27,243 bases of DNA, taken from positions 1 to 27,243 of IMG/VR virus record IMGVR_UViG_3300028831_000232; one strand, written 5' to 3'. The position numbers and the translations under genes were made by a program. This document shows, piece by piece, positions 10,105 to 27,243 of this stretch (positions within the stretch are counted from its first letter, which is position 1; the number at the start of each line of letters is the position of its first letter). Under the pieces are notes generated by a model. It did no database searches. It was not told the origin of the DNA and saw only the letters and a program-made list of their open reading frames with translations. The DNA is from a virus.

Positions 10105-11247
10105 TTACTGAGGTTTGTTCATGGCACTGAGCACATCGATGGACGATGGTGGCCCACCGGTCGGAGAGGACATCTGCGATGGCCCCTTTGTCGTAGTGGA
10201 CGACGAGGATGATGTGACTGGCTTAGCCAGCGGGTCGTCCTTGCCCAGGAACTGGTCTGCGCCCATCCGCAGCCCCTTCACGTCGATGATGCAGCGGAAG
10301 GGCACCATGGCCGAGTTGAAGTGCGTGTACTGCACGTCGAAGTTGGTGAGGTAGGCGTTCCAGGTCATGTCGAGCGGGTCACCGAACTGGATCTTCACCC
10401 GGTTGGGCAGCATGTAGGGAAATGCCGGCGTAATGCCGACAAGCCACTCGAAGCACTGGACATCGAGGAGCACGCCCAACTTGCTGCCACCGATGACCTC
10501 GTAGGTCCGGTCGAAGTAGAGCTGGAACGAGATCGAAGTGGACGTGCCTTGCGGCAGACCGACCTTCATCTGGGACAAATCCTGCTGCAGCGGATCCTTG
10601 ATGGCGGTGTCAACGCTGTAGCCGAACGAGATCGTCTGGGGGTTGTAGAGAAATTTCACCACATAGCCCACGGCCGGGTCAGTCTGGCCGATTATCTGTC
10701 CCTTGGTGGCCGAGGAGCGGTATGGCCCGCTGGCGTAGTTGGACCGCGGGTCAAATGGCTGCTGTACCGGACCCTTGCCCTTGGAATCGAACAGCGTGGT
10801 GACGGTCCACGCCCCGGAACCGTTGTTGATCGCGTCGATGGCCGTGGCTACCTGGGGGCCGAATATGCCGCTGGTGGCTGCCGTCTGCTGGCCGGTTAGG
10901 TACTTCCGGTAGGACCCGTCGTTGTAGGTGGCCCACGGTGTCCAGTCCACGCCGTGACCAGAGATCTGAAAGGCCGCTGCAGCGTTGTAATCGGGATCGG
11001 TCAGCAACCGATTGAAGTCGTTGAACTCGGGGTGCCACTTGTCGTTGATCTGCCACAGCCCACGGTCGATGCTGCCGTCGCCGTTCTTGTGCCAGTTGTT
11101 GACGATCCAGCTGCTCTCGGCCTTGGAAATGGCAACGGCGATGTCGATGTTCGAACCCTGCCAGTACTGGGCGGCGAGGTTGTACATCTCTGCCTGGCCC
11201 ATCGGCTTGTTGAGCGGCGGCCCCGTTGGGTTGCTGACGGCCATCAT
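10105..11247 (-). CDS. Lysozyme/transglycosylase-like domain fused to tube-initiator (CIS tube N-terminal-like) domain
   Basis: 380 aa (start 11247 or 11244). N-terminal AVAISKAESS...DRGLWQIN...DPDYNA...WTPWATY; C-terminal FLYNPQTIS...SISFQLYFDRTYE...YTHFNSAMVPFR. Confidence 0.8.
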   Translation of the reverse strand: MMAVSNPTGPPLNKPMGQAEMYNLAAQYWQGSNIDIAVAISKAESSWIVNNWHKNGDGSIDRGLWQINDKWHPEFNDFNRLLTDPDYNAAAAFQISGHGVDWTPWATYNDGSYRKYLTGQQTAATSGIFGPQVATAIDAINNGSGAWTVTTLFDSKGKGPVQQPFDPRSNYASGPYRSSATKGQIIGQTDPAVGYVVKFLYNPQTISFGYSVDTAIKDPLQQDLSQMKVGLPQGTSTSISFQLYFDRTYEVIGGSKLGVLLDVQCFEWLVGITPAFPYMLPNRVKIQFGDPLDMTWNAYLTNFDVQYTHFNSAMVPFRCIIDVKGLRMGADQFLGKDDPLAKPVTSSSSSTTTKGPSQMSSPTGGPPSSIDVLSAMNKPQ

Positions 11248-13724
11248 TTCCTCGCTAGGGCTTCGAGCTTGTCTCGATCACTGAAGATCTCCATGAGGTA
11301 CCGGGCGGCGCGCTCGGCCTCGTCGGGCGTTCCCTTGGCAATTTCCACCTTGAGCGTGAGGTTCTGGATGGAGACGCTCGTGCCACCCCCGCCCCGTCCG
11401 GCCCCGGTACCGAATGCTGAAGCCACCGGGTCACCCACATCGCTGTGGGCATTGCCGCCGGGGCCGGTGCTGGTCTTCAGAATCGTGGCTATCCAGTCGG
11501 CCTCGTTCTGGCTGGCGACATGCACCTTGCCCTTGGGCACAGCTGCCGGGCGGGCCTGGGCAGCCGGCGTCGAAGCCGCCGCCTTCTGGGCCGGCTTGGC
11601 CGACGGTGCCGACGGCGGCGGCTTGTAGCTGGAAGCGCCGGCCCCGGACAATTCCCAGTGCCACGGCTCACCGCCCACTGTCGCCTTGAGGCCGTACTTG
11701 CCGGCGTTATCGGCCAGCCACTTGTACTCGCTCGATGGCCCGATGTCGGCGGCATTTCCCGTCTCGTGGCGGCTCTGGCCGACGGCCGCTACTGGTTCGG
11801 GTTTGAGGCCGACGAGGTGCTTCCACCGCAGGTACGCCTGCTCCTGAGATGAGCGCCAACCCGAGGTCACCGAGAGCTTGGGGTTCTCCGCGAACATGGC
11901 CTTGAGCGCCTCGGTGAACGACGGGTTCAGGTTGGCCGAGTTGCCGGGACCGGGGAGTGGACCGCCGCCCGGCGTCGTTGCCGGCGGTGGCGGGTTCGCC
12001 AGCAACTCCTGATCTGTCTGGGCGTCACCGACACCATGCTGGAAGATGGCGTGCTGACCGGACCATGCCCTGGTAACCGGGTCACCAACAGCGCCGATTG
12101 CTCGAAGACCAAGATGTCCGAGGCCAGCAACACCGCCAATGGCAAGACCACCGAGCACTGATAGCCCAGCTGTGGGTCCGGCCGTAGCGAGGCCCGCAGC
12201 TAGTCCAGCGCCGAGGTACTTCGTCATCGTTCCGCCGGCCCGAGCGGCGGCATTCTTCTTGCCGTCTTTTGCGCCGATGTTCGAGATGGCACCCCCGGCG
12301 ATCTGCCCGCCGGCTATGGCGGCCAATGGCGGAATAAAACCAGCGAGGCCCAAGCCGGCTCCTTCTTCTGCCGCCCCCGCCCCTCCCCCCAGTTTGCCTG
12401 CTATCCCGCTCAGCCCCCCTGCGTTACTCCAGGCCATTTTGGCCGCCGTCGCCGCAGCGGCCAGACCCAGTACCACAATCGCTTTACCTGTCGTACCGAG
12501 GTCCGATGTCATGGAGGAGAAAGCGTTGAGCACCGGGGAGATGATGTTTGCCAGCCCGGTAAAAAGCGGCAGCAGTGACGTACTCAGCGAGTCGGTCAGC
12601 TTCGCCATGGACTCGTGGAACTTCCGCATGCTCTCCGAGGCGTTGCTGATGTTCTTGTCCACTGCCTTGCCGAACTGCTCGGGGTTCAACGCTTTGCCGG
12701 CCTGAGCGCGGATGGCCCCGAAGGCCATGAAGGCGTCGATGGTTTCGTCGCTCAGACCGAGGCCCTTCAGGCCCTCGCGGGTCATGGTGCCCTCGGCCTG
12801 ACCGGTCTGGAACATCTTCAGCGCAGTCTTCTTGTCGGTGGTGCCGCGGGTCATCCGTTGGTACAGCGACTCGAAGATGTCCGAAGGAGCGCGAGCCACA
12901 CCGCCCGGCGACACTTGCACGTTCGCCATTCGCAGCTGGTTGGCCGAAGCCTGCAGGTTCGAGATGATGCCAGCACCGCCCGCGAAATTCGTGCCCGACA
13001 GCCGGCCCAGCTGTCCGGCCTGCTGGGCCTGGAGGTAGGATGCCTGGTCAGTGCCCCGAATGACGCCGGCCCGGCCGAGAATGGCCCCGCCCTGGTAGAG
13101 ATCCTCCCGGCTCCAGTAGCCCCCAGCCTTCCGCAGCATGCCGCCGTAGGGACCGGCCGTACCCCCACCGCCAGGACCGATGCCCTGGAACGGCTGACCG
13201 GGCTGCTGATTCATCAGCGCCAGCCGGTTGGTGACGCCCCCCGCCTGCATCGTGCCGGACATGGCGTTCGACGCCATTTGGAACAGCCGCCGATAGATCT
13301 CGAACTCGACGCCACCCCGCACGATGTTGGCTGTCGTAGAACCCGGCGCGCCTGCGCCTCCACCAGGACCGCCGGCCGGCGTCATGGACGGCTGGAACCC
13401 CGGTACGCGAGGTTGCAGTCGCGGTTGAACACCAAAACGACTCGGAGGACCGCCCACGTTCGGATCTACCGTCATGTGGGGTTGGAATCCGGTGACCCGA
13501 GCGGTGCCGGTGGCCGCACCCGGAGCGGCGTTCTTGTAGCGCACCGCCTCGTCGGCCAAGCCCTTCATCTCGGCCTTCAGCGCCCGAACGGCGCCAGTGA
13601 TCCGGTTAATGGCGTTGCCAGCATTGGGGTCAACGCTGATGATCGGCTTGACGATGCGACCGACCGCACCCCGTACGCCGCCTCGATCCCGAGGCGTAGC
13701 CGAACCGAGCGGCGGCTCAGGCAT
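11244..13724 (-). CDS. Tape measure protein with M15 (D-Ala-D-Ala peptidase/VanY-like) domain
   Basis: 826 aa, Gly/Ala-rich, with hydrophobic segments; follows the chaperones. SGWRS..EQ, SRHETGNAAD (SxHxxGxAxD) and EPWH are Zn-peptidase M15 motifs (~11650-11950). Confidence 0.85.
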   Translation of the reverse strand: MPEPPLGSATPRDRGGVRGAVGRIVKPIISVDPNAGNAINRITGAVRALKAEMKGLADEAVRYKNAAPGAATGTARVTGFQPHMTVDPNVGGPPSRFGVQPRLQPRVPGFQPSMTPAGGPGGGAGAPGSTTANIVRGGVEFEIYRRLFQMASNAMSGTMQAGGVTNRLALMNQQPGQPFQGIGPGGGGTAGPYGGMLRKAGGYWSREDLYQGGAILGRAGVIRGTDQASYLQAQQAGQLGRLSGTNFAGGAGIISNLQASANQLRMANVQVSPGGVARAPSDIFESLYQRMTRGTTDKKTALKMFQTGQAEGTMTREGLKGLGLSDETIDAFMAFGAIRAQAGKALNPEQFGKAVDKNISNASESMRKFHESMAKLTDSLSTSLLPLFTGLANIISPVLNAFSSMTSDLGTTGKAIVVLGLAAAATAAKMAWSNAGGLSGIAGKLGGGAGAAEEGAGLGLAGFIPPLAAIAGGQIAGGAISNIGAKDGKKNAAARAGGTMTKYLGAGLAAGLATAGPTAGLSVLGGLAIGGVAGLGHLGLRAIGAVGDPVTRAWSGQHAIFQHGVGDAQTDQELLANPPPPATTPGGGPLPGPGNSANLNPSFTEALKAMFAENPKLSVTSGWRSSQEQAYLRWKHLVGLKPEPVAAVGQSRHETGNAADIGPSSEYKWLADNAGKYGLKATVGGEPWHWELSGAGASSYKPPPSAPSAKPAQKAAASTPAAQARPAAVPKGKVHVASQNEADWIATILKTSTGPGGNAHSDVGDPVASAFGTGAGRGGGGTSVSIQNLTLKVEIAKGTPDEAERAARYLMEIFSDRDKLEALARK

Positions 13725-19558: not shown

Positions 19559-22500
19559 CTATCCCTTCGTCATCAGCCGGTCGTCCTCGGTCATCTCCAG
19601 CCTGCCATCTCCGTTCATCGGCCGGCCGTACGTCTCGGTCATGGCCGAGGTGGGGGTGACCGTCGTCGCGACCGGTGGCGACGGTCGCAGACCTGTCCAC
19701 ACCCGCACGCTGGCCTCACCCCCGGTCACGATCAGCTCGTCACCGGCCACCGTCAACCCCAGCGGCAGCTCGGCCAGCTCAGCCAGGGTCAGGCCCAGCT
19801 GGTCGGCGGCACCGAAGATCGCCTGGACGGCGCTCTGTGCCACCAGGGAGGCCACCAGCGTGTCCGAGGTGCCCACGACCACCTGGAGCACGAACGCCTC
19901 GGAGACGGCAACAGAGAGGCTGTCGGAAGCCGTCAGGGTCACGGCCAAAGTGACACCGCCGGCCACGGCCAGCTGGAGGCTGTCAGAGGCCCCGAAAACG
20001 ACGGTCGTAGCGGTGGCTTCGGTGACCGCCACGGCCAGCGTGTCCACGGCGTCCTTGGGTGTGATCCCGAGCAGATCCCTGACCAGGCCGATGTCGCTGA
20101 CAGCCAAGGCCAGAGCGTCCGATACCGCCAGTGAGGCCAGGATCGTGGACAGCTCCCCGAGCACCAGGCCGGCAGCATCGACCGCCGCCAGCGTCACCTG
20201 GATGTCCATGTCCTCGGTGAGCACGGCAGCCAGCTGATCGCTGGTGGACACCACCACGGCCATGCTCACCGCGGCGTCGTCGCCGGCCAGCGCCAGTTGG
20301 TCACTGGCCGCCACCATGGCGAACAGGGTCGAGCTGTCGGCCACGATCAGGCCCAGGGTGTCTGCTACCGCCACGGCGGCCAGGATGGTCGAGCTGTCAC
20401 TGGCGCCGGCCACCAGGATGTCGGTGGTGGTCACCGTCACGGTCACGGCCCGGCCCTCGGTGGCGCCGATGGTGAGGGCGTCGGTCGAGCTGAACAGCAC
20501 CAGCGGGGCCGAGGCGTCGGTGATTCCCAGGGTCAGGGCATCGGTGGTCGTCCGCTGGGCCTGGGTGGCCGACACCTCGGTGATGGCGGCGGTCAGCTGG
20601 TCGGTGGTCCCGACTGAGGCGGCGATGGCCCGGCCCTCGGTGAGCGCCGCCGCCAGGGTGTCGGTCGTCCCGAAGACCGCCAGGACGGCCGAGGCGTCAG
20701 TCACCCCGGCGGTCAAGGTGTCGGTGGTAGTGACCACGCCGGCCACTGTCACCGTGGCGTCGGTCACGCCGGCCACGAGGGCGTCGGTACGGGCCACCGT
20801 CACCACCGTGGCCGAAGCGTCCCCCAGGATGGCCTGGAGGGCGTCTGTGGCGCTCGCAGCGGCCAGGATGGCGCTGGCGTCAGCCAGGGTGACGGCGAGG
20901 ATGTCGGTGGCCGTTACAAAGGTCACGATGACCACCACCGAGGCATCGGTGACCGTGACGGCCAGCGTGTCGGTCGAGCTGAAGGTGACGAGGGGCGACG
21001 ACGCCTCGGTGATGCCAGCAGTGAGCGAGTCGGTGGTGGAGCGCTGGGCCTGGATGGCCGAGTTGTCGGCCATCGTGGCGGCCAGGGTGTCGGAGGTGCT
21101 CACGAAGACGGCCGGCGAGCTGGCGTCGGAGACGGTCACGGTCAGCGAATCGGTGGTGGTGCGCTGAGCCTGCACGGCCGAAGACTCGGTAATTCCAACA
21201 GTCGGTGTGTCCACCGTCGTAATGACGGTCGCCACCGCCGACGTGTCCGTAATTCCCGCCGTGAGCGTGTCGGTGGAAGACAAGGCGTTCATCACGGCCG
21301 ATGTGTCGGTGACCCCCACCGTTCCAATGTCCCCGGTAACGAGCGAGACGGCGAGGGCCGGCGACGCCTCCGTAATTGCTGCCGTCAAGGTGTCAGCCGT
21401 GGAAACGGAAGCGGCCACCGCCGATGTGCCTTCGGTGACGGCGGCTGTGACGGTGTCGGTGGTGGACACCACAACCTGCGGCGACGAGTTGTCGGTCACA
21501 CCGGCAGTCACCGCGTCAGCGGTGGAGACGACGACCACCGGAGCGGACGTATCGGTGATCCCTGCCGTCAGGGTGTCCGTCGTCGTTCGCTGGGCCTGTA
21601 CCGCCGAAGACTCAGTGGCACCGACGGTCGCCGTGTCACCAGTCGAAGAGAAGACCACGATGACCGACGCGCCTTCTATGAGAGTCACGGTCAGAGTGTC
21701 GTTGGCCGTCTGCTGTGCCTGCACTGCTGACGTGTCGGTAATCCCGGTGGTGACGGTATCGGCGGTGTTGACGACCACCACGATGCTGCTGGTTTCGGTT
21801 ATGCCCAGCGTCGGCGTATCCAGGCTCATCGGAGCCGTGTAATTGCCGGCCGTCTCGTATGTACCAGTGGCGAACGTACCCGTCGCCGGAACGATGGGAG
21901 CGGTGAAGATGGCGATGCTCGACACTTCGCCCAGCGTCAAGGCCAACGTGTCGGTGGTGGTCGGCTTGCCGAGGACCGCTGAACTGTCGGTGATACCAAC
22001 CGTGGGCGTGTCGGTGGTCGAAACAGTGGCAGCAACACTGCTTGATTCGACGATGCCGATAGTCGGAGCATCGACAGCGCCCGGCGCCGTGCTCTGGGCG
22101 GCGATCTCGTAGGTACCAATAGCGAACGTGCCGATGGCCGGAATCGGGGCCGGCGTAGACGCAACCAGAGCAGAGCTGTCGGTGACCCCAGCTGTCAGCG
22201 TGTCGGTGGTTCCGACTACCACCTTGACGGCGCTCGACTCGCCAAGGGTCAGCGCCAGCGTGTCAGTGGTACTGACCGGTGTGACGGTGACTGCCGACTC
22301 CCAGGTATTCCACTCGACAGCGCCGATGTCCATGCCGCTGTCGGTCGAGATCCGCAGCTCGACATTGGCCCCGGAGATAGCGGCCAACGTGGCGGCGTCC
22401 CAGGTGAAGGAGTAGACACCGTCGGTAGGGACAGGAACGGTGCCCAGCGTGGAGATCTTGGTGCCGTTCTCCCACAGTTCGACGGTGGCGGTAGGCCCGG

Positions 22501-23212
22501 ACGGTCCAGCCAGAATCTCGAACATGGCGAAGTCGCCACAGTTCTGGCTGCTACCGAGGTTCATCTGGACGGCGCCAGCGTTCACCGTGCCGTTGCGCCG
22601 CCAGATCATTCCCTCGTAGTTGCCGCTGTAGAAGTCGTCAAAGACAATCGTCTCGTTGGCGGCCTGACTACCGGTGTTCGTCAACTGCGCCGCACCGGAC
22701 CAGTTGGCAACGACGGCAACAACAAGCGAACCGTTGCCGACAGCGGTGATCTGACCGGCAGGGGCGGCACCGCCAGTGTTATTGGCGAGCAGCAGGTTCC
22801 CGGTCGTACTCCAGTAGGGAGTACCCCCCGACGTTGCCGTGCCTGCGTTGAGCGTCGGGGTACCGATCTCCCCGCCGGTCACAACGAGGACAGTGAGCAT
22901 GGCACCGGGGTAGTTCGGCAGTACCTGCGGAGTGACCTGGATGTAGCCAGTCCATCCCGTTGACGGCACGTTGGCCCACCAGACCGTCAGGTCACCGCCG
23001 ACGACGTTATTCGGCTCAGCGATCTTGGTGAAGGTCAGGGCGCCTTGGCTATCCAGTACGTCAACGACGGCGCCGTTGGAGTCCCAGGTGGTGAAGATCC
23101 AGAGCCGGCTGCCAGCTGGCGGCGTGAAGACCGCCGACTGAAGATAGGCGTAGACCGAGCCGGTATGAGGAGCGGCGAAATACTGACTGGTGGCATCGAT
23201 GGCGACAGCCAT
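19559..23212 (-). CDS. Long repetitive fibre protein (putative head/neck fibre)
   Basis: 1217 aa: ~235-aa N-terminal beta-domain, a half-domain (aa ~239-301), roughly 40 copies of a ~20-aa repeat, and a short C-terminal tail. Confidence 0.75.
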   Translation of the reverse strand: MAVAIDATSQYFAAPHTGSVYAYLQSAVFTPPAGSRLWIFTTWDSNGAVVDVLDSQGALTFTKIAEPNNVVGGDLTVWWANVPSTGWTGYIQVTPQVLPNYPGAMLTVLVVTGGEIGTPTLNAGTATSGGTPYWSTTGNLLLANNTGGAAPAGQITAVGNGSLVVAVVANWSGAAQLTNTGSQAANETIVFDDFYSGNYEGMIWRRNGTVNAGAVQMNLGSSQNCGDFAMFEILAGPSGPTATVELWENGTKISTLGTVPVPTDGVYSFTWDAATLAAISGANVELRISTDSGMDIGAVEWNTWESAVTVTPVSTTDTLALTLGESSAVKVVVGTTDTLTAGVTDSSALVASTPAPIPAIGTFAIGTYEIAAQSTAPGAVDAPTIGIVESSSVAATVSTTDTPTVGITDSSAVLGKPTTTDTLALTLGEVSSIAIFTAPIVPATGTFATGTYETAGNYTAPMSLDTPTLGITETSSIVVVVNTADTVTTGITDTSAVQAQQTANDTLTVTLIEGASVIVVFSSTGDTATVGATESSAVQAQRTTTDTLTAGITDTSAPVVVVSTADAVTAGVTDNSSPQVVVSTTDTVTAAVTEGTSAVAASVSTADTLTAAITEASPALAVSLVTGDIGTVGVTDTSAVMNALSSTDTLTAGITDTSAVATVITTVDTPTVGITESSAVQAQRTTTDSLTVTVSDASSPAVFVSTSDTLAATMADNSAIQAQRSTTDSLTAGITEASSPLVTFSSTDTLAVTVTDASVVVIVTFVTATDILAVTLADASAILAAASATDALQAILGDASATVVTVARTDALVAGVTDATVTVAGVVTTTDTLTAGVTDASAVLAVFGTTDTLAAALTEGRAIAASVGTTDQLTAAITEVSATQAQRTTTDALTLGITDASAPLVLFSSTDALTIGATEGRAVTVTVTTTDILVAGASDSSTILAAVAVADTLGLIVADSSTLFAMVAASDQLALAGDDAAVSMAVVVSTSDQLAAVLTEDMDIQVTLAAVDAAGLVLGELSTILASLAVSDALALAVSDIGLVRDLLGITPKDAVDTLAVAVTEATATTVVFGASDSLQLAVAGGVTLAVTLTASDSLSVAVSEAFVLQVVVGTSDTLVASLVAQSAVQAIFGAADQLGLTLAELAELPLGLTVAGDELIVTGGEASVRVWTGLRPSPPVATTVTPTSAMTETYGRPMNGDGRLEMTEDDRLMTKG
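19715..22273 (-). repeat. ~60-nt/20-aa degenerate coding repeat array
   Basis: Consensus (S/T)TDTL(T/A)xG(I/V)T(D/E)xSxVxVxV, e.g. TTDTLTAGITDTSAPVVVVS; degenerates toward the C-terminus. Confidence 0.9.
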
Positions 23213-24039
23213 CAGGACCCCGGCCGGGCGCGAATGCGGAACTCCTGCTTGAAGCCGGACATGAGGTTGGCCGCCGGGGTCGGGAACGATACCCGGAGCA
23301 CCACGGCGCCGGCACTGGTCATCCAGTTGGCATCAGGTGCATCAGGGTCGTCCTGAATGACCGACAGAGCGCCAGTCAGATTGGTCTGGGTGAGGGCGCC
23401 GTCAGGGACCAGTCGGTTCGTGACCGCCTTGACGGTGCTGGAGGCATCGGCCATGGTGGCCGCCAGGGTGTCGATGGTGGTGACGGAGAGAATCGGGACC
23501 AGTGAACTGGCATCGGTAATCCCGCTCGTCAGGGTGTCGGTTGTTGATTTGGCAATGGGATCGGCCTCTGACGCGACCCACCGCACCGCTCCGACTTCAA
23601 TGGTCGCCCGCTGACCACCGGAGCCGCCGACCGTGCCGGTTATACGGCACTCGACGTTGACACCTGATACCGCCGTGAGCAGTGACGCATCCCAGGTGCC
23701 AGTGAGCATCTGACCGGTAGCCGAGGTGACGCTGGTCGCCGCCAGCACGGTGGCCTTGAGGACACCGCTCTCCCACAATTCCAGCGTGGCAGTTGGAGAA
23801 CCGGTCCCGCCATTCTTTCGCACCCACGCCTTGAAGGTCTGAAGTCCCGCTCCGGTGTTGAGCGTACCGATGGTCGGGCTGGGAAATGACACCCGTAGCA
23901 CCGAGGCAGTGATGGTCGAAGATGCCGTCAGCCAGGTGGCGTCGGGGCTGGAGGGATCATCCTGAATGGCCGAGAGGGCGCCAACGAGGTTCGTCTGGAG
24001 CAGCAGTGCATCGGGAGCGATCTGCTCGGTGGTCGCCAT
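23212..24039 (-). CDS. Fibre-associated protein: one full domain, two 20-aa repeats, and the N-terminal half of a second domain copy
   Basis: 275 aa, GAGG RBS; internal duplication QTNLVGALSAIQDDP...VLRVSFP versus QTNLTGALSVIQDDP...VLRVSFP. Confidence 0.75.
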   Translation of the reverse strand: MATTEQIAPDALLLQTNLVGALSAIQDDPSSPDATWLTASSTITASVLRVSFPSPTIGTLNTGAGLQTFKAWVRKNGGTGSPTATLELWESGVLKATVLAATSVTSATGQMLTGTWDASLLTAVSGVNVECRITGTVGGSGGQRATIEVGAVRWVASEADPIAKSTTDTLTSGITDASSLVPILSVTTIDTLAATMADASSTVKAVTNRLVPDGALTQTNLTGALSVIQDDPDAPDANWMTSAGAVVLRVSFPTPAANLMSGFKQEFRIRARPGS

Positions 24040-24368: not shown

Positions 24369-25130
24369 CTAGAACCCGTAGGCCATCCAGTTACATCGAA
24401 CCAATGAGTTTGCCAAAGCACCGGCTGTGTTTAAGCACCTAAGTTGGAACGATGACAGCGATCCCGCAGCATCGGTGACGATGGCCCACCATGTTCCGGC
24501 ACCCCCGGACGCTGCCACCACGAACGCTGCGATCAGTCCGTTCGGGAATGCCGTAGGAAACGTGACCGTCTGGTAGCCGTTGGCATCACTGGTGAACACG
24601 ATGGTGCCAACCTGCAAAAGGAAGGGCAGCGATCCGGTGTCCACAGCAGGCGGTGAACCCACATAGGCCGAACCGATATTGAGCACCTTCAAGTTGCGCT
24701 CGGTGACCCAGTTCGAACCGTTCCACGACTTCAGCAGTCCGGTGTCGGTTTCCCGCAGCAGCATGTCCTGCGTAGGCGAGGCCGGCCGCGCCGACGAAGT
24801 GCCAAGCAGTGTTTTCTCGTAGGCCGAGGCCGCCGTCTCGGCCAGGATCCAGGGGATGCCCTGGGCGTGCTGGCGAGCGGCGCCTCCACCGAGGGCCGTC
24901 TCCTGTCCCCGCAATGCCGTGACCGACGTGGCCGCAGCGGTGTGGGCCGTGACATAGACAATCTCGGGTGTCCCAGCCGTCCCCAGCGGGTCGAGAACCA
25001 GAGCGATGATGTCGGGCGACGCCACCACCGGGAGGTTGGCGAAATTGGCACTGTTGATCGTGGTCGCACCGATCAACAGCGGGTTGTCGGTGATCGTTCC
25101 CGACATGAAGTTGCGGCGCAACCGTGCCAT
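24369..25130 (-). CDS. Fibre/decoration protein paralogue B with a lectin-like (gp53-like) C-terminal domain
   Basis: 253 aa. N-terminal 101 aa shared with 25140..25793; SARPASP...LLRETDTG..WNGSNW linker; QVG...VTFPTAFPN...SSF...NWMAYG tip. Confidence 0.7.
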   Translation of the reverse strand: MARLRRNFMSGTITDNPLLIGATTINSANFANLPVVASPDIIALVLDPLGTAGTPEIVYVTAHTAAATSVTALRGQETALGGGAARQHAQGIPWILAETAASAYEKTLLGTSSARPASPTQDMLLRETDTGLLKSWNGSNWVTERNLKVLNIGSAYVGSPPAVDTGSLPFLLQVGTIVFTSDANGYQTVTFPTAFPNGLIAAFVVAASGGAGTWWAIVTDAAGSLSSFQLRCLNTAGALANSLVRCNWMAYGF

Positions 25131-25139
25131 CTCACCCCC

Positions 25140-25793
25140 CTAGTTGTCTATGCGGAACGAGACACCGTCGAGCGAGAACCAGGCATTGCCGCCGACGCCC
25201 GCGCGCACGCCGCCGTCCGACCCGATGATCTCGATCTGGGTGGCAACGGCCGTCGTCCCGTTGTTGGAGATGCCGGGGATCTGCAGGAATTGCGCCGGTC
25301 GATAGCCAGCGGCCAGCGTGAAGATGTAGGCCGTCGTCCCAGCACCGATGGTGCCCAGCTTCACCAATCCCTTGAGATAGACCACCTGGCCGACGCGCTT
25401 GTACCCCGCCGTGGGGTAATTGACGGCGTCGTAGTTCACCCAGGAATTCAACAGGGTCGGTGTCTGCCAGCCGGTGTCGTCCAGGCCATTGGCCGCCGTG
25501 TCGGCCACGATCCAGGGGACCCCCTGGGCATGCTGGCGGGCACCACTTCCGCCGTACGTAGACTCCTGGCCTCGCACGACGGTGACCGCCGTCGCTGCCG
25601 CCGTATGGGCCGTCACGTAGGCCACTTCAGGAATGCCGCCCGTGCCTAACGGATCGAGCACGAGCGTCATGATGTCCGGCGCCGCGACGACCGGCAGACC
25701 GGAGAACCCGGCCGAGTTGATCGTGGTCGCGCCAGCGGTCAGCGGGTTGTCAGTGATCGTCCCGCTGGCGAAATTCCGGCGCAGCCGGGCCAT
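25140..25793 (-). CDS. Fibre/decoration protein paralogue A with DTGW-type tip domain
   Basis: 217 aa; C-terminal DTGWQTPTLLNSW...YKRVGQVVYLKGLV...IFTLAAGYRP...WFSLDGVSF. Confidence 0.72.
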   Translation of the reverse strand: MARLRRNFASGTITDNPLTAGATTINSAGFSGLPVVAAPDIMTLVLDPLGTGGIPEVAYVTAHTAAATAVTVVRGQESTYGGSGARQHAQGVPWIVADTAANGLDDTGWQTPTLLNSWVNYDAVNYPTAGYKRVGQVVYLKGLVKLGTIGAGTTAYIFTLAAGYRPAQFLQIPGISNNGTTAVATQIEIIGSDGGVRAGVGGNAWFSLDGVSFRIDN

Positions 25794-25796
25794 GGA

Positions 25797-26183
25797 TTAC
25801 GCCGCAGTCAGCGTAAGCGTGACCGTAAATTGCCAAGACTGGGTGGACGCCTTGGTCCCGAGGGCCTCCTGCTTACGGTTGAGCATCGTGCCGGCGGCTG
25901 CAGCGTTGAACACGCCCCACTCGTTCCAGGCGTAGTTGGCGTCGGCCAGGGCGAAGGTGGACCGGAAGGTGAGGACGTTGGTCGCCTGCTGAGGGTACGT
26001 GGCGTCCATCGCCTTGCGGAACTTGTTCGTCGCCGCCACGAGGTCGGTCTGAGTGTTGGCGTAGGCCGTCACGCCGTCGCCCACGCCGATGTAGCTGTTG
26101 GCGTTATTGAACGTCGTCACACCCAGCGTGCCGGTGACAATGGCGGTGGCAATGCCGTCCCGAGCTGCGTTGGTCAGCCCCAT
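25797..26183 (-). CDS. Virion structural protein (fibre-base / tail-collar-fibre N-terminal-like)
   Basis: 128 aa. YIGVGDG...QTDL, F...DANYAWNEWGVFNAAAAGTMLNRK pattern seen in phage fibre-attachment proteins. Confidence 0.6.
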   Translation of the reverse strand: MGLTNAARDGIATAIVTGTLGVTTFNNANSYIGVGDGVTAYANTQTDLVAATNKFRKAMDATYPQQATNVLTFRSTFALADANYAWNEWGVFNAAAAGTMLNRKQEALGTKASTQSWQFTVTLTLTAA

Positions 26184-26418: not shown

Positions 26419-26668
26419 GCTCACTCTCCCCTCTGATCCAGTGCTCGGTGATCTCGCCGTCGTCGGTGATGATGACCTCGGCCAGCGCAGCTGCCGCCTC
26501 CTCCTCGGTCATCTCGCTGACCTCGCCATCGAATTTCTTCACTACACAGCGGGTGTGCTCGATGCCGTACTGGAGGCCGTCCGGGGCGATGAAGAGCTGC
26601 TTGACCTCGCCGCTCTCGATGAGGCCCATCTGCCCGCCGTCGAACCGCTCCTCCTCAGTGCCAGACAT
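26399..26668 (-). CDS. Hypothetical acidic protein
   Basis: 89 aa, overlapping both neighbours in the operon. Confidence 0.55.
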   Translation of the reverse strand: MSGTEEERFDGGQMGLIESGEVKQLFIAPDGLQYGIEHTRCVVKKFDGEVSEMTEEEAAAALAEVIITDDGEITEHWIRGESEHGPPEG

Positions 26669-27011
26669 AGCCCAGCTCTTCGAGGTGGTCGGCCACGCCG
26701 GCCGGCACCCGCACCAGCTGGCCCTCCTTGAAGGTGTAGTTGTTGCCGACGCCGAGGGTCATCTCGATGTCGCTGTTCACGCGGATCGTCCGGGCCTCGG
26801 GTTCGACGTAGACGACCTCACCCTGCTCGTTGGTCTGCGTGGTCGGCGTGTCGTCGCGGACGTAGTCGGTGACCTCGTCGCTCAGCTCGCCCGATGCCTG
26901 ATTCACCATCGCCAGCTCGTGCTCGCGAGCGGCGATTGCCTCGGCGTTCTCTCGCGCCAGGCGTGCTCGCTGCCGCCCGGTGTAGTCGGACGGCTTGACC
27001 TGCTGCGCCAT
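26655..27011 (-). CDS. Conserved protein downstream of major capsid
   Basis: Start reassigned to ATG 27011 (GAGGAG RBS), 118 aa; IRVNSDIEMTLG.GN.YTFKEG...VP..VADHLEELGY. Confidence 0.75.
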   Translation of the reverse strand: MAQQVKPSDYTGRQRARLARENAEAIAAREHELAMVNQASGELSDEVTDYVRDDTPTTQTNEQGEVVYVEPEARTIRVNSDIEMTLGVGNNYTFKEGQLVRVPAGVADHLEELGYVWH

Positions 27012-27028
27012 TTTTATTCTCCTCGTGG

Positions 27029-27062
27029 TCCCGTTGCGACGGGAGAGCCTGCCCCTCCCGTC
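27029..27062 (-). terminator. Hairpin(s) directly after the capsid stop codon
   Basis: GACGGGAG...CTCCCGTC stem (27038-27062) and an alternative TCCCGT-CGCA-ACGGGA stem (27029-27044); no U-tract. Confidence 0.45.
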
Positions 27063-27243
27063 AGTTCGTCTCGATGCGGACGACGCTGTTGTCGGTGATC
27101 CGGCCGAAGCCCCAGATCGAGTACCACGCCAGGGCATGTTCCCGACCGAAGTCGAGGATGCCGCCGTCGCGCAGCTCCACCGGAAGGCTGATGGCGTGCC
27201 CGAAAGCGTTGTCACCGATCATGAGGGCGTCGTAGCGGTCACG
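27061..27243 (-). CDS. Major capsid protein, N4-gp56 family, C-terminal end (partial)
   Basis: Not in the ORF track. Manual translation: RDRYDALMIGDNAFGHAISLPVELRDGGILDFGREHALAWYSIWGFGRITDNSVVRIETN*. Confidence 0.85.
   Translation of the reverse strand, partial: RDRYDALMIGDNAFGHAISLPVELRDGGILDFGREHALAWYSIWGFGRITDNSVVRIETN

Follow-up and report, generated by a model that had tools for sequence, protein, structure and literature searches.

A jelly-roll domain divided between adjacent phage fibre genes: a conserved cut and a probable fold-complementation joint

Background

Subunits of the chaperone-usher pili (Fim, Pap, Caf1) are linked by donor-strand complementation and exchange, a process by which the incomplete fold of one subunit is completed by the next. 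The crystal structure of the baseplate tripod of the Lactococcus phage Tuc2009 shows that a 25-residue C-terminal β-hairpin of BppU completes a sheet of domain 2 of BppA (PMC4742702), and a gene fission within a domain can be stable, as the fungal fatty acid synthase (FAS) illustrates (10.1101/336578). Here we describe a domain, termed D, that is divided between two adjacent genes, A and B, of an uncultured phage (IMG/VR record IMGVR_UViG_3300028831_000232). The stretch analysed, referred to as the window, comprises 27,243 nucleotides (nt) and is the first 27 kb of this 105.6-kb record. Most probably, the proteins encoded by A and B are held together by a conserved, non-covalent joint that is formed by fold complementation of the two halves of D, a reading that draws on sequence comparison and structural models.

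A domain divided between two genes

All genes of the A/B stretch are encoded on the minus strand. A preliminary description of this DNA had read A as an intact copy of D followed by two TTDTL repeats and the first half only of a second D, and had placed the missing half in B, behind an unrelated domain (X) and ahead of further TTDTL repeats. BLASTP and profile searches bear out this anatomy, in which D has ~155 amino acids (aa) and X has 236, and which is laid out as follows.

23212–24039, minus strand: gene A (275 aa), D1, two TTDTL repeats and the first half of D2; start MATTEQIAPDA, the usual N-terminus of D proteins; stop TGA at 23212–23214
23566–24039, minus strand: D1, the intact domain D, A residues 1–158 (model and structure superposition)
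23419–23565, minus strand: linker of two TTDTL-type repeats, A residues 159–207 (sequence)
23215–23418, minus strand: D2N, the first half (five strands) of the second D, A residues 208–275, ending ..QEFRIRARPGS (BLASTP, profile, alignment)
23210–23214, minus strand: A/B stop/start overlap TGATG, with G-rich RPG codons 5–12 nt upstream of the ATG
19559–23212, minus strand: gene B (1217 aa), start MAVAIDATS
22505–23212, minus strand: X, the 236-aa all-β N-terminal domain of B, at the position of the central loop of D; start MAVAIDATSQ
22304–22504, minus strand: D2C, the second half (five strands) of the second D, B residues 237–303 (BLASTP, profile, alignment)
19559–22303, minus strand: remainder of B, a shaft of about 40 TTDTL-type repeats of 20 aa each, and a C-terminal region without repeats (translation)

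When A residues 1–165, which include D1, were compared by BLASTP with A 195–275 and with B 200–330, the first half of the domain aligned to A 205–272 (49% identity, E 3e-20) and the second half to B 236–301 (40% identity, E 2e-12). Half-domain hidden Markov models (HMMs) built from unsplit homologues placed the first half at A 208–275 (3e-23, profile positions 3–72 of 74) and the second at B 240–302 (2e-13, profile positions 2–75 of 75), with no further match in the window. Searching protein A against the whole viral record gave matches at the places of A and B only, and the C-terminal half-domain of A aligned with 11 other C-terminal half-domains. The rest of B (22303 down to 19559) has no family match in Pfam or PHROGs.

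The arithmetic of the junction was also found to be correct, in that removal of nucleotides 22499–23214 (716 nt) would join ..RARPGS to GPTATVELWE in frame, and the two genes overlap in TGATG, as had been described. Two other elements of the preliminary description did not survive. The GTCC common to both junctions, which had been pointed out, is no evidence of an insertion site; it is only 4 nt long in G+C-rich DNA, and it was dropped as a microhomology scar since the junction sequences of other loci differ. The 716-nt stretch, described as a possible recent insert in this genome, proved to be one variant of an exchangeable N-terminal domain of B-type proteins.

A host domain broken by an insert that has a start codon of its own, at some loci with an additional gene between the parts, has a superficial likeness to a 'fractured gene', in which split-intein halves at the break would ligate the two products by protein trans-splicing (the arrangement of PMC2677866). 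That A and B are joined in this manner is scarcely credible: A ends directly inside D and lacks an N-intein of ~100 aa, X has no Hint or intein match (no Pfam match for B at E ≤ 1), and the end of X (..FEILAGPS/GPTAT) is not the His-Asn of a C-intein followed by Cys, Ser or Thr.

Conservation of the cut and selection on the halves

The DNA of 11 A/B pairs was read on 10 contigs: the window, L003, L004 (two pairs), L005, L006, L007, L011, L050 (from a metagenome-assembled genome of Gemmatimonadales), L057 and L058. The upstream gene of each pair ends in one and the same loop, the central one of D, mostly with ..EFR[IV]R[VA]RPG[ST]*, and the downstream gene encodes an unrelated N-terminal domain of 155–450 aa followed by the second half of D. 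Wherever the flanking DNA was readable (11/11 pairs), a contig with a first-half tail also bears a second half downstream. The junctions, written from stop to start codon, vary.

TGATG: window, L050, L057
ATGA: L007, L058
TGA-C-GTG: L003
TAG-CG-ATG: L004, both junctions
TAG-ACC-ATG: L005
TAG-GCC-ATG: L011
TAG-GCCGTC-GTG: L006

The spacing from stop to start is −4, −1, +1, +2, +3 or +9 nt, and frame offsets of 0, +1 and +2 are all present. Moreover, the partners are separated by an unrelated gene in L004 (104 aa) and in L058 (124 aa). Of 199 proteins collected, 37 that are complete and start with Met have their C-terminus in this loop (R[IV]R[VA]RPG[ST]). A second half preceded by an X-type domain, with no first half, is found in at least 25 proteins. 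The N-terminus MA[VL]AI is common to B-type proteins, and one of them (P0204) matches B over its first ten residues, which confirms the start codon of B.

These observations bear on recoding, by which a −1 frameshift or stop read-through would fuse A and B into one chain and X would be an ordinary loop insertion. The TGATG overlap does place B of the window in the −1 frame, in L005, L006 and L011 the next gene continues in the frame of the stop, and insertions in cis at the central loop of D exist. The preliminary description had entertained a −1 fusion, which we now consider very improbable: homologous junctions show all three offsets and differing stop codons (TGA, TAG), no X XXY YYZ heptamer is seen at the window junction, two pairs have a gene between the partners, and the Met start of B-type proteins is conserved. 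The range of offsets and the intervening genes mean that frameshifting or read-through is not a general solution, and they rule out assembly error.

The phylogeny of D gives the split some age. In a maximum-likelihood tree of 52 D domains, which included 10 split D's with their halves concatenated, all 10 fell into one clade within the unsplit family (support 98/91; 97% of bootstrap trees), with terminal branches of 0.05–0.66. On these sequences, the single clade indicates one ancient split that was retained while the flanking domains were exchanged. The usual marks of a gene fission are seen here, in that unsplit homologues exist, both pieces are conserved, and synteny holds in 11/11 pairs. 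The search for unsplit or differently filled homologues that had been proposed returned contiguous D's, D's inserted within D's, and varied N-terminal domains.

Pairwise ratios of nonsynonymous to synonymous substitution (dN/dS, NG86) range from 0.08 to 0.75 for first halves and from 0.13 to 0.66 for second halves, and none reaches 1, although dS is mostly above 1 (saturated) and the ratios are therefore rough. Both halves are under purifying selection, and the neutral evolution that had been raised as an outcome for such halves is not borne out. A recent insertion or an assembly indel that broke one gene and left the halves to decay accounts for the local appearance of the window and nothing more. 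Altogether, 10 independent assemblies and dozens of protein clusters show the identical cut, the branches within the monophyletic group of split D's are long, and dN/dS is below 1 for both halves; we therefore give almost no credence to the suggestion that these are relics.

Several variations on the arrangement were observed. Nucleotides 2947–6205 of L004 encode a B protein with a second half near its start and a first-half end (..RVRPGS*), then the 104-aa gene, then a protein C with the next second half, a gene set that encodes a possible three-protein chain. Two further contigs, known from gene tables, have a long gene directly after an A-type gene. In L044 (4492–7264) D is cut at its first loop, where the upstream gene ends ..DSPDGNWLLLS and is followed by a small open reading frame (ORF) and then by a gene with ~170 aa and the rest of D. 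In L028 D ends earlier, after SFPTPAFNLL, and no recognisable partner was found. Most short B-type proteins (P0200–P0224) end ..PP..VE[SM]WGxxxI*, and many A-type proteins (P0036, P0038, P0044, P0052, P0065) start M..W..W.PP....SDTL; this end and this start are a candidate second joint, and A and B of the window have neither motif.

Fold and family of domain D

A model of D1 built from an alignment of 38 homologues has a predicted local distance difference test score (pLDDT) of 96.5, a predicted template modelling score (pTM) of 0.91, and an all-β architecture of ten strands. VIA-align superposed it on IFT25, allantoicase, the XRCC1 N-terminal domain and carbohydrate-binding modules (CBM) of families 32, 35 and 6 (Z 9.1–10.8, root-mean-square deviation ~3 Å over 120–130 of 160 residues), and Foldseek matched it to CBM35, CBM6, CBM4 and CBM22 (E 6e-5 to 1e-3, TM 0.43–0.53). 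From these superpositions of the model, D is assigned, at the level of fold only, to the galactose-binding-domain-like β jelly rolls. Membership in a curated CBM family could not be assigned by sequence, and no Pfam family matched A or B at E ≤ 0.1; PHROGs gave no usable match to A or B and have no family that covers D, and a D profile found nothing below E 0.15 among the sequences of the Protein Data Bank (PDB).

The family is nevertheless large, with 876 cluster representatives matched by the first-half profile at E ≤ 0.001, and D occurs in metagenome-assembled genomes labelled as several bacterial phyla. The region had no match among 50,697 GenBank phage records (megablast, tblastn), so that by these searches the module is absent from cultured phages, and no description of the D family or of a split jelly-roll fibre joint was found in the literature.

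It is the loop joining strands 5 and 6 that is cut (in D1, ..FKAWVRK / NGGTGS / PTATLELWE). In a jelly roll the strands of both halves alternate in both sheets, and because of this neither half of D alone would have a hydrophobic core.

Pairing of the halves

The identity matrices of the first and second halves correlate over seven pairs (Mantel r 0.62, permutation p 0.015), and r falls to −0.18 when the partners of the two L004 pairs are exchanged, a result that fits the gene order A to B, B to C.

The co-folding check that had been proposed was carried out as one two-chain prediction, of A 203–275 with B 228–310, in which each chain was given an alignment of split relatives. It scored 0.72, against 0.01 for the best of three controls; among solved complexes 58 of 80 attain this mark, and among mismatched pairs 2 of 110 do, counts that are rough here as our own alignments were used. 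Three runs share at least 96% of contacts, with a partner pLDDT of at least 76 and ~245 contacts. In the model, VLRVS of A pairs with VELRI of B, EFRIR of A lies against YSFTW and IGAVEW of B, and the neighbours are those of the intact D1 (strands 46–51/129–135 and 67–77/110–116/145–158). The model supports the predicted binding of the A and B halves.

Taken with the conserved cut, the variable frames, the intervening genes and the purifying selection, this prediction favours the proposal of the preliminary description that D is re-formed in trans by two chains, and we infer that the halves bind and that they do so by co-folding. Several points weigh against this reading. Its support consists throughout of sequence comparison and models, and the relatives are metagenomic contigs, all of them. 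The dN/dS ratios are blurred by saturation, and shared ancestry would by itself produce some of the co-divergence of the halves. A complex predictor may also just recognise two halves of a familiar fold, and so report compatibility, not binding.

An alternative is that the halves do not pair. The gene boundary would then be a point of module exchange, the A half would bind another partner (a capsid or neck protein, for example) or serve as an assembly tag, and X would stabilise the B half. Binding of A to B is a prediction, the partners are not adjacent in L004 and L058, and X always stands immediately before the second half, all of which would suit this view. It is hard to reconcile with half jelly rolls that have no hydrophobic core of their own, with the presence of a second half downstream of the first-half tail in all 11 readable pairs, and with halves that diverge in step and lose their match when the L004 partners are swapped. 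We judge it unlikely, though deserving of more weight than recoding, and favour a conserved joint between A and B.

Domain X and insertions in the loops of D

X (B residues 1–236) is modelled as all-β (pLDDT 73, pTM 0.77). It has no Foldseek match in the PDB at E ≤ 0.001 and no Pfam or PHROG match, and its nearest clusters in the ESM Atlas are unnamed viral proteins of ~185–190 aa. A domain of this kind directly precedes the second half in every case.

Of 222 matched pairs of first and second halves, 205 are contiguous; in 16 the cis insert at this loop is a whole D or two D's, one nested in the other, and in the remaining pair 89 aa are inserted. On these sequences the central loop of D is an insertion hot spot. 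'Russian-doll' proteins with D inside D are seen in L008 (2–3004), P0012, P0068 and P0069, the last two with two nested levels. A hybrid form occurs in L007, where A ends with a first half and B starts with a complete D that is followed by the orphan second half. Other loops of D also receive inserts in cis (P0060, P0065, P0066, P0076). P0076 was considered as an unsplit version filled by X and was rejected; the 240 aa inserted in it lie in another loop of D, the one that runs from ..SFPTP.. to ..QEFRV...

Genome context

On the coding strand, the genes upstream are those for terminase, portal and major head protein (L049, which reaches into the top end of the window). They are followed by small genes that include one for a 128-aa phrog_23653 protein, then by two fibre-like paralogues (217 and 253 aa), a 79-aa gene, A and B. 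Downstream of B are several genes without matches, and then genes for tail sheath, baseplate-hub-like, tape-measure-like and lysozyme/tube proteins. This gene order is that of a contractile-tailed phage, and it places A and B in a fibre module that has the capsid genes on one side and the neck and tail genes on the other. In relatives the module adjoins genes for head decoration, a Gp80 head protein and a head-tail adaptor, and because of this a place on the head or neck is more likely for the appendage than one on the baseplate. The 275-aa A protein as a 'cap' on the fibre, as had been suggested, is plausible.

Other features of the region were noted. The adjacent fibre-like paralogues (24369–25793, minus strand; 253 and 217 aa) have a common N-terminus, MARLRRNF.SGTITDNPL, and C-terminal domains that differ, one protein with a Gp53-like_C match (2e-9) and the other with minor-tail PHROG matches. 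The phrog_23653 protein (127–128 aa) recurs upstream of the fibre module (window 25797–26183, minus strand; L005, 2375–2758), and in four contigs, L004 and L057 among them, the A-type gene is immediately preceded by a gene for the PF23140 Gp80/phrog_240 head protein. At 11244–13724 (minus strand) lies the gene for an 826-aa tape-measure-like protein with a VanY D-Ala-D-Ala carboxypeptidase domain (Pfam, 4e-7), and the gene next to it (10105–11247) encodes a lysozyme-like SLT_3 domain and a CIS tube domain. A 186-aa ORF at 26655–27215 (minus strand), which has no family match and is probably no gene, overlaps the 3′ part of the major head protein gene; the latter leaves the window at 27061–27243 in another frame.

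A proposed mechanism

A and B would be translated from one message as separate polypeptides, probably coupled through the TGATG overlap, with the start of B lying 0–9 nt from the stop of A and behind the G-rich RPG codons. Neither the last 68 residues of A (five strands) nor residues 237–303 of B (five strands) would fold alone. Together the two half-domains may co-fold into one jelly roll, with the strands of the two chains alternating in both sheets, and this tight, non-covalent joint would tie A (D1 and a short stalk) to the base of the long TTDTL-repeat shaft of B and let X protrude at the central loop of the D so formed. The joint would be an inherited modular connector, in which one ancestral split was kept while the N-terminal part of A, X and the shaft of B were exchanged. 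The fibre itself probably sits on the head or neck, as the module lies between capsid and neck genes.

A broader idea, which we put forward tentatively and which may well be wrong, is that the split jelly roll serves the head or neck fibres of phages generally as a programmable connector. A protein with a first half at its end could be plugged onto whichever protein bears the matching second half, giving appendages that are branched or that are chains of fixed order (L004 encodes A to B to C), built from genes that can be exchanged separately, with partner specificity residing in the co-evolving halves and a display domain always at the joint.

If the halves do co-fold, they would represent a natural and evolutionarily stable half-and-half split of a jelly roll that is used as a protein-protein joint. 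Fibre modules could then be exchanged as whole genes, since recombination at the gene boundary would swap a domain without breaking the fold, and protein engineering would gain candidates for natural split tags in the matched halves. Such half-domains will mislead gene callers and annotators, and single-chain structure prediction will miss the D that they would form; this concerns a family that has no Pfam or PHROG match and is nonetheless widely represented among protein clusters.

Comparison with known systems

The Tuc2009 tripod is, to our knowledge, the sole solved phage joint of this general kind, and it involves a two-strand hairpin. As in Tuc2009, two separate proteins of a phage adhesion device would be linked by strands that one gives to the incomplete β-sandwich of the other, and the attached protein bears a domain of carbohydrate-binding type. 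In Tuc2009, however, the hairpin is added to an immunoglobulin (Ig)/titin-like domain at a protein terminus, whereas in A and B the domain is a galactose-binding-like jelly roll divided centrally into 5+5 strands, its second half is placed within B, after a domain of 236 aa, and the family conserves the break point.

The principle would, like that of the chaperone-usher pili, allow head-to-tail chains, as suggested by the L004 protein that has both types of half. Pilins are Ig folds short of a single strand, and they depend on an usher and a periplasmic chaperone. In A and B half a jelly roll is absent, assembly would be cytoplasmic, and neither chaperone nor usher is present; the surrounding genes encode phage capsid, fibre and tail proteins.

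The likeness to fungal FAS lies in a domain that is encoded by two genes, both of whose pieces are kept, that has unsplit relatives, and whose assembly re-creates (in A and B, by prediction) the topology of a single chain. The FAS case differs in that it concerns an enzyme domain in a eukaryotic megasynthase, where the break holds no inserted domain and partners are not exchanged as modules. Relative to the known fold-complementation joints, what is new in the arrangement of A and B is the jelly-roll fold, the 5+5 cut, the domain nested at the break, and the large, uncharacterised family to which the divided domain belongs.

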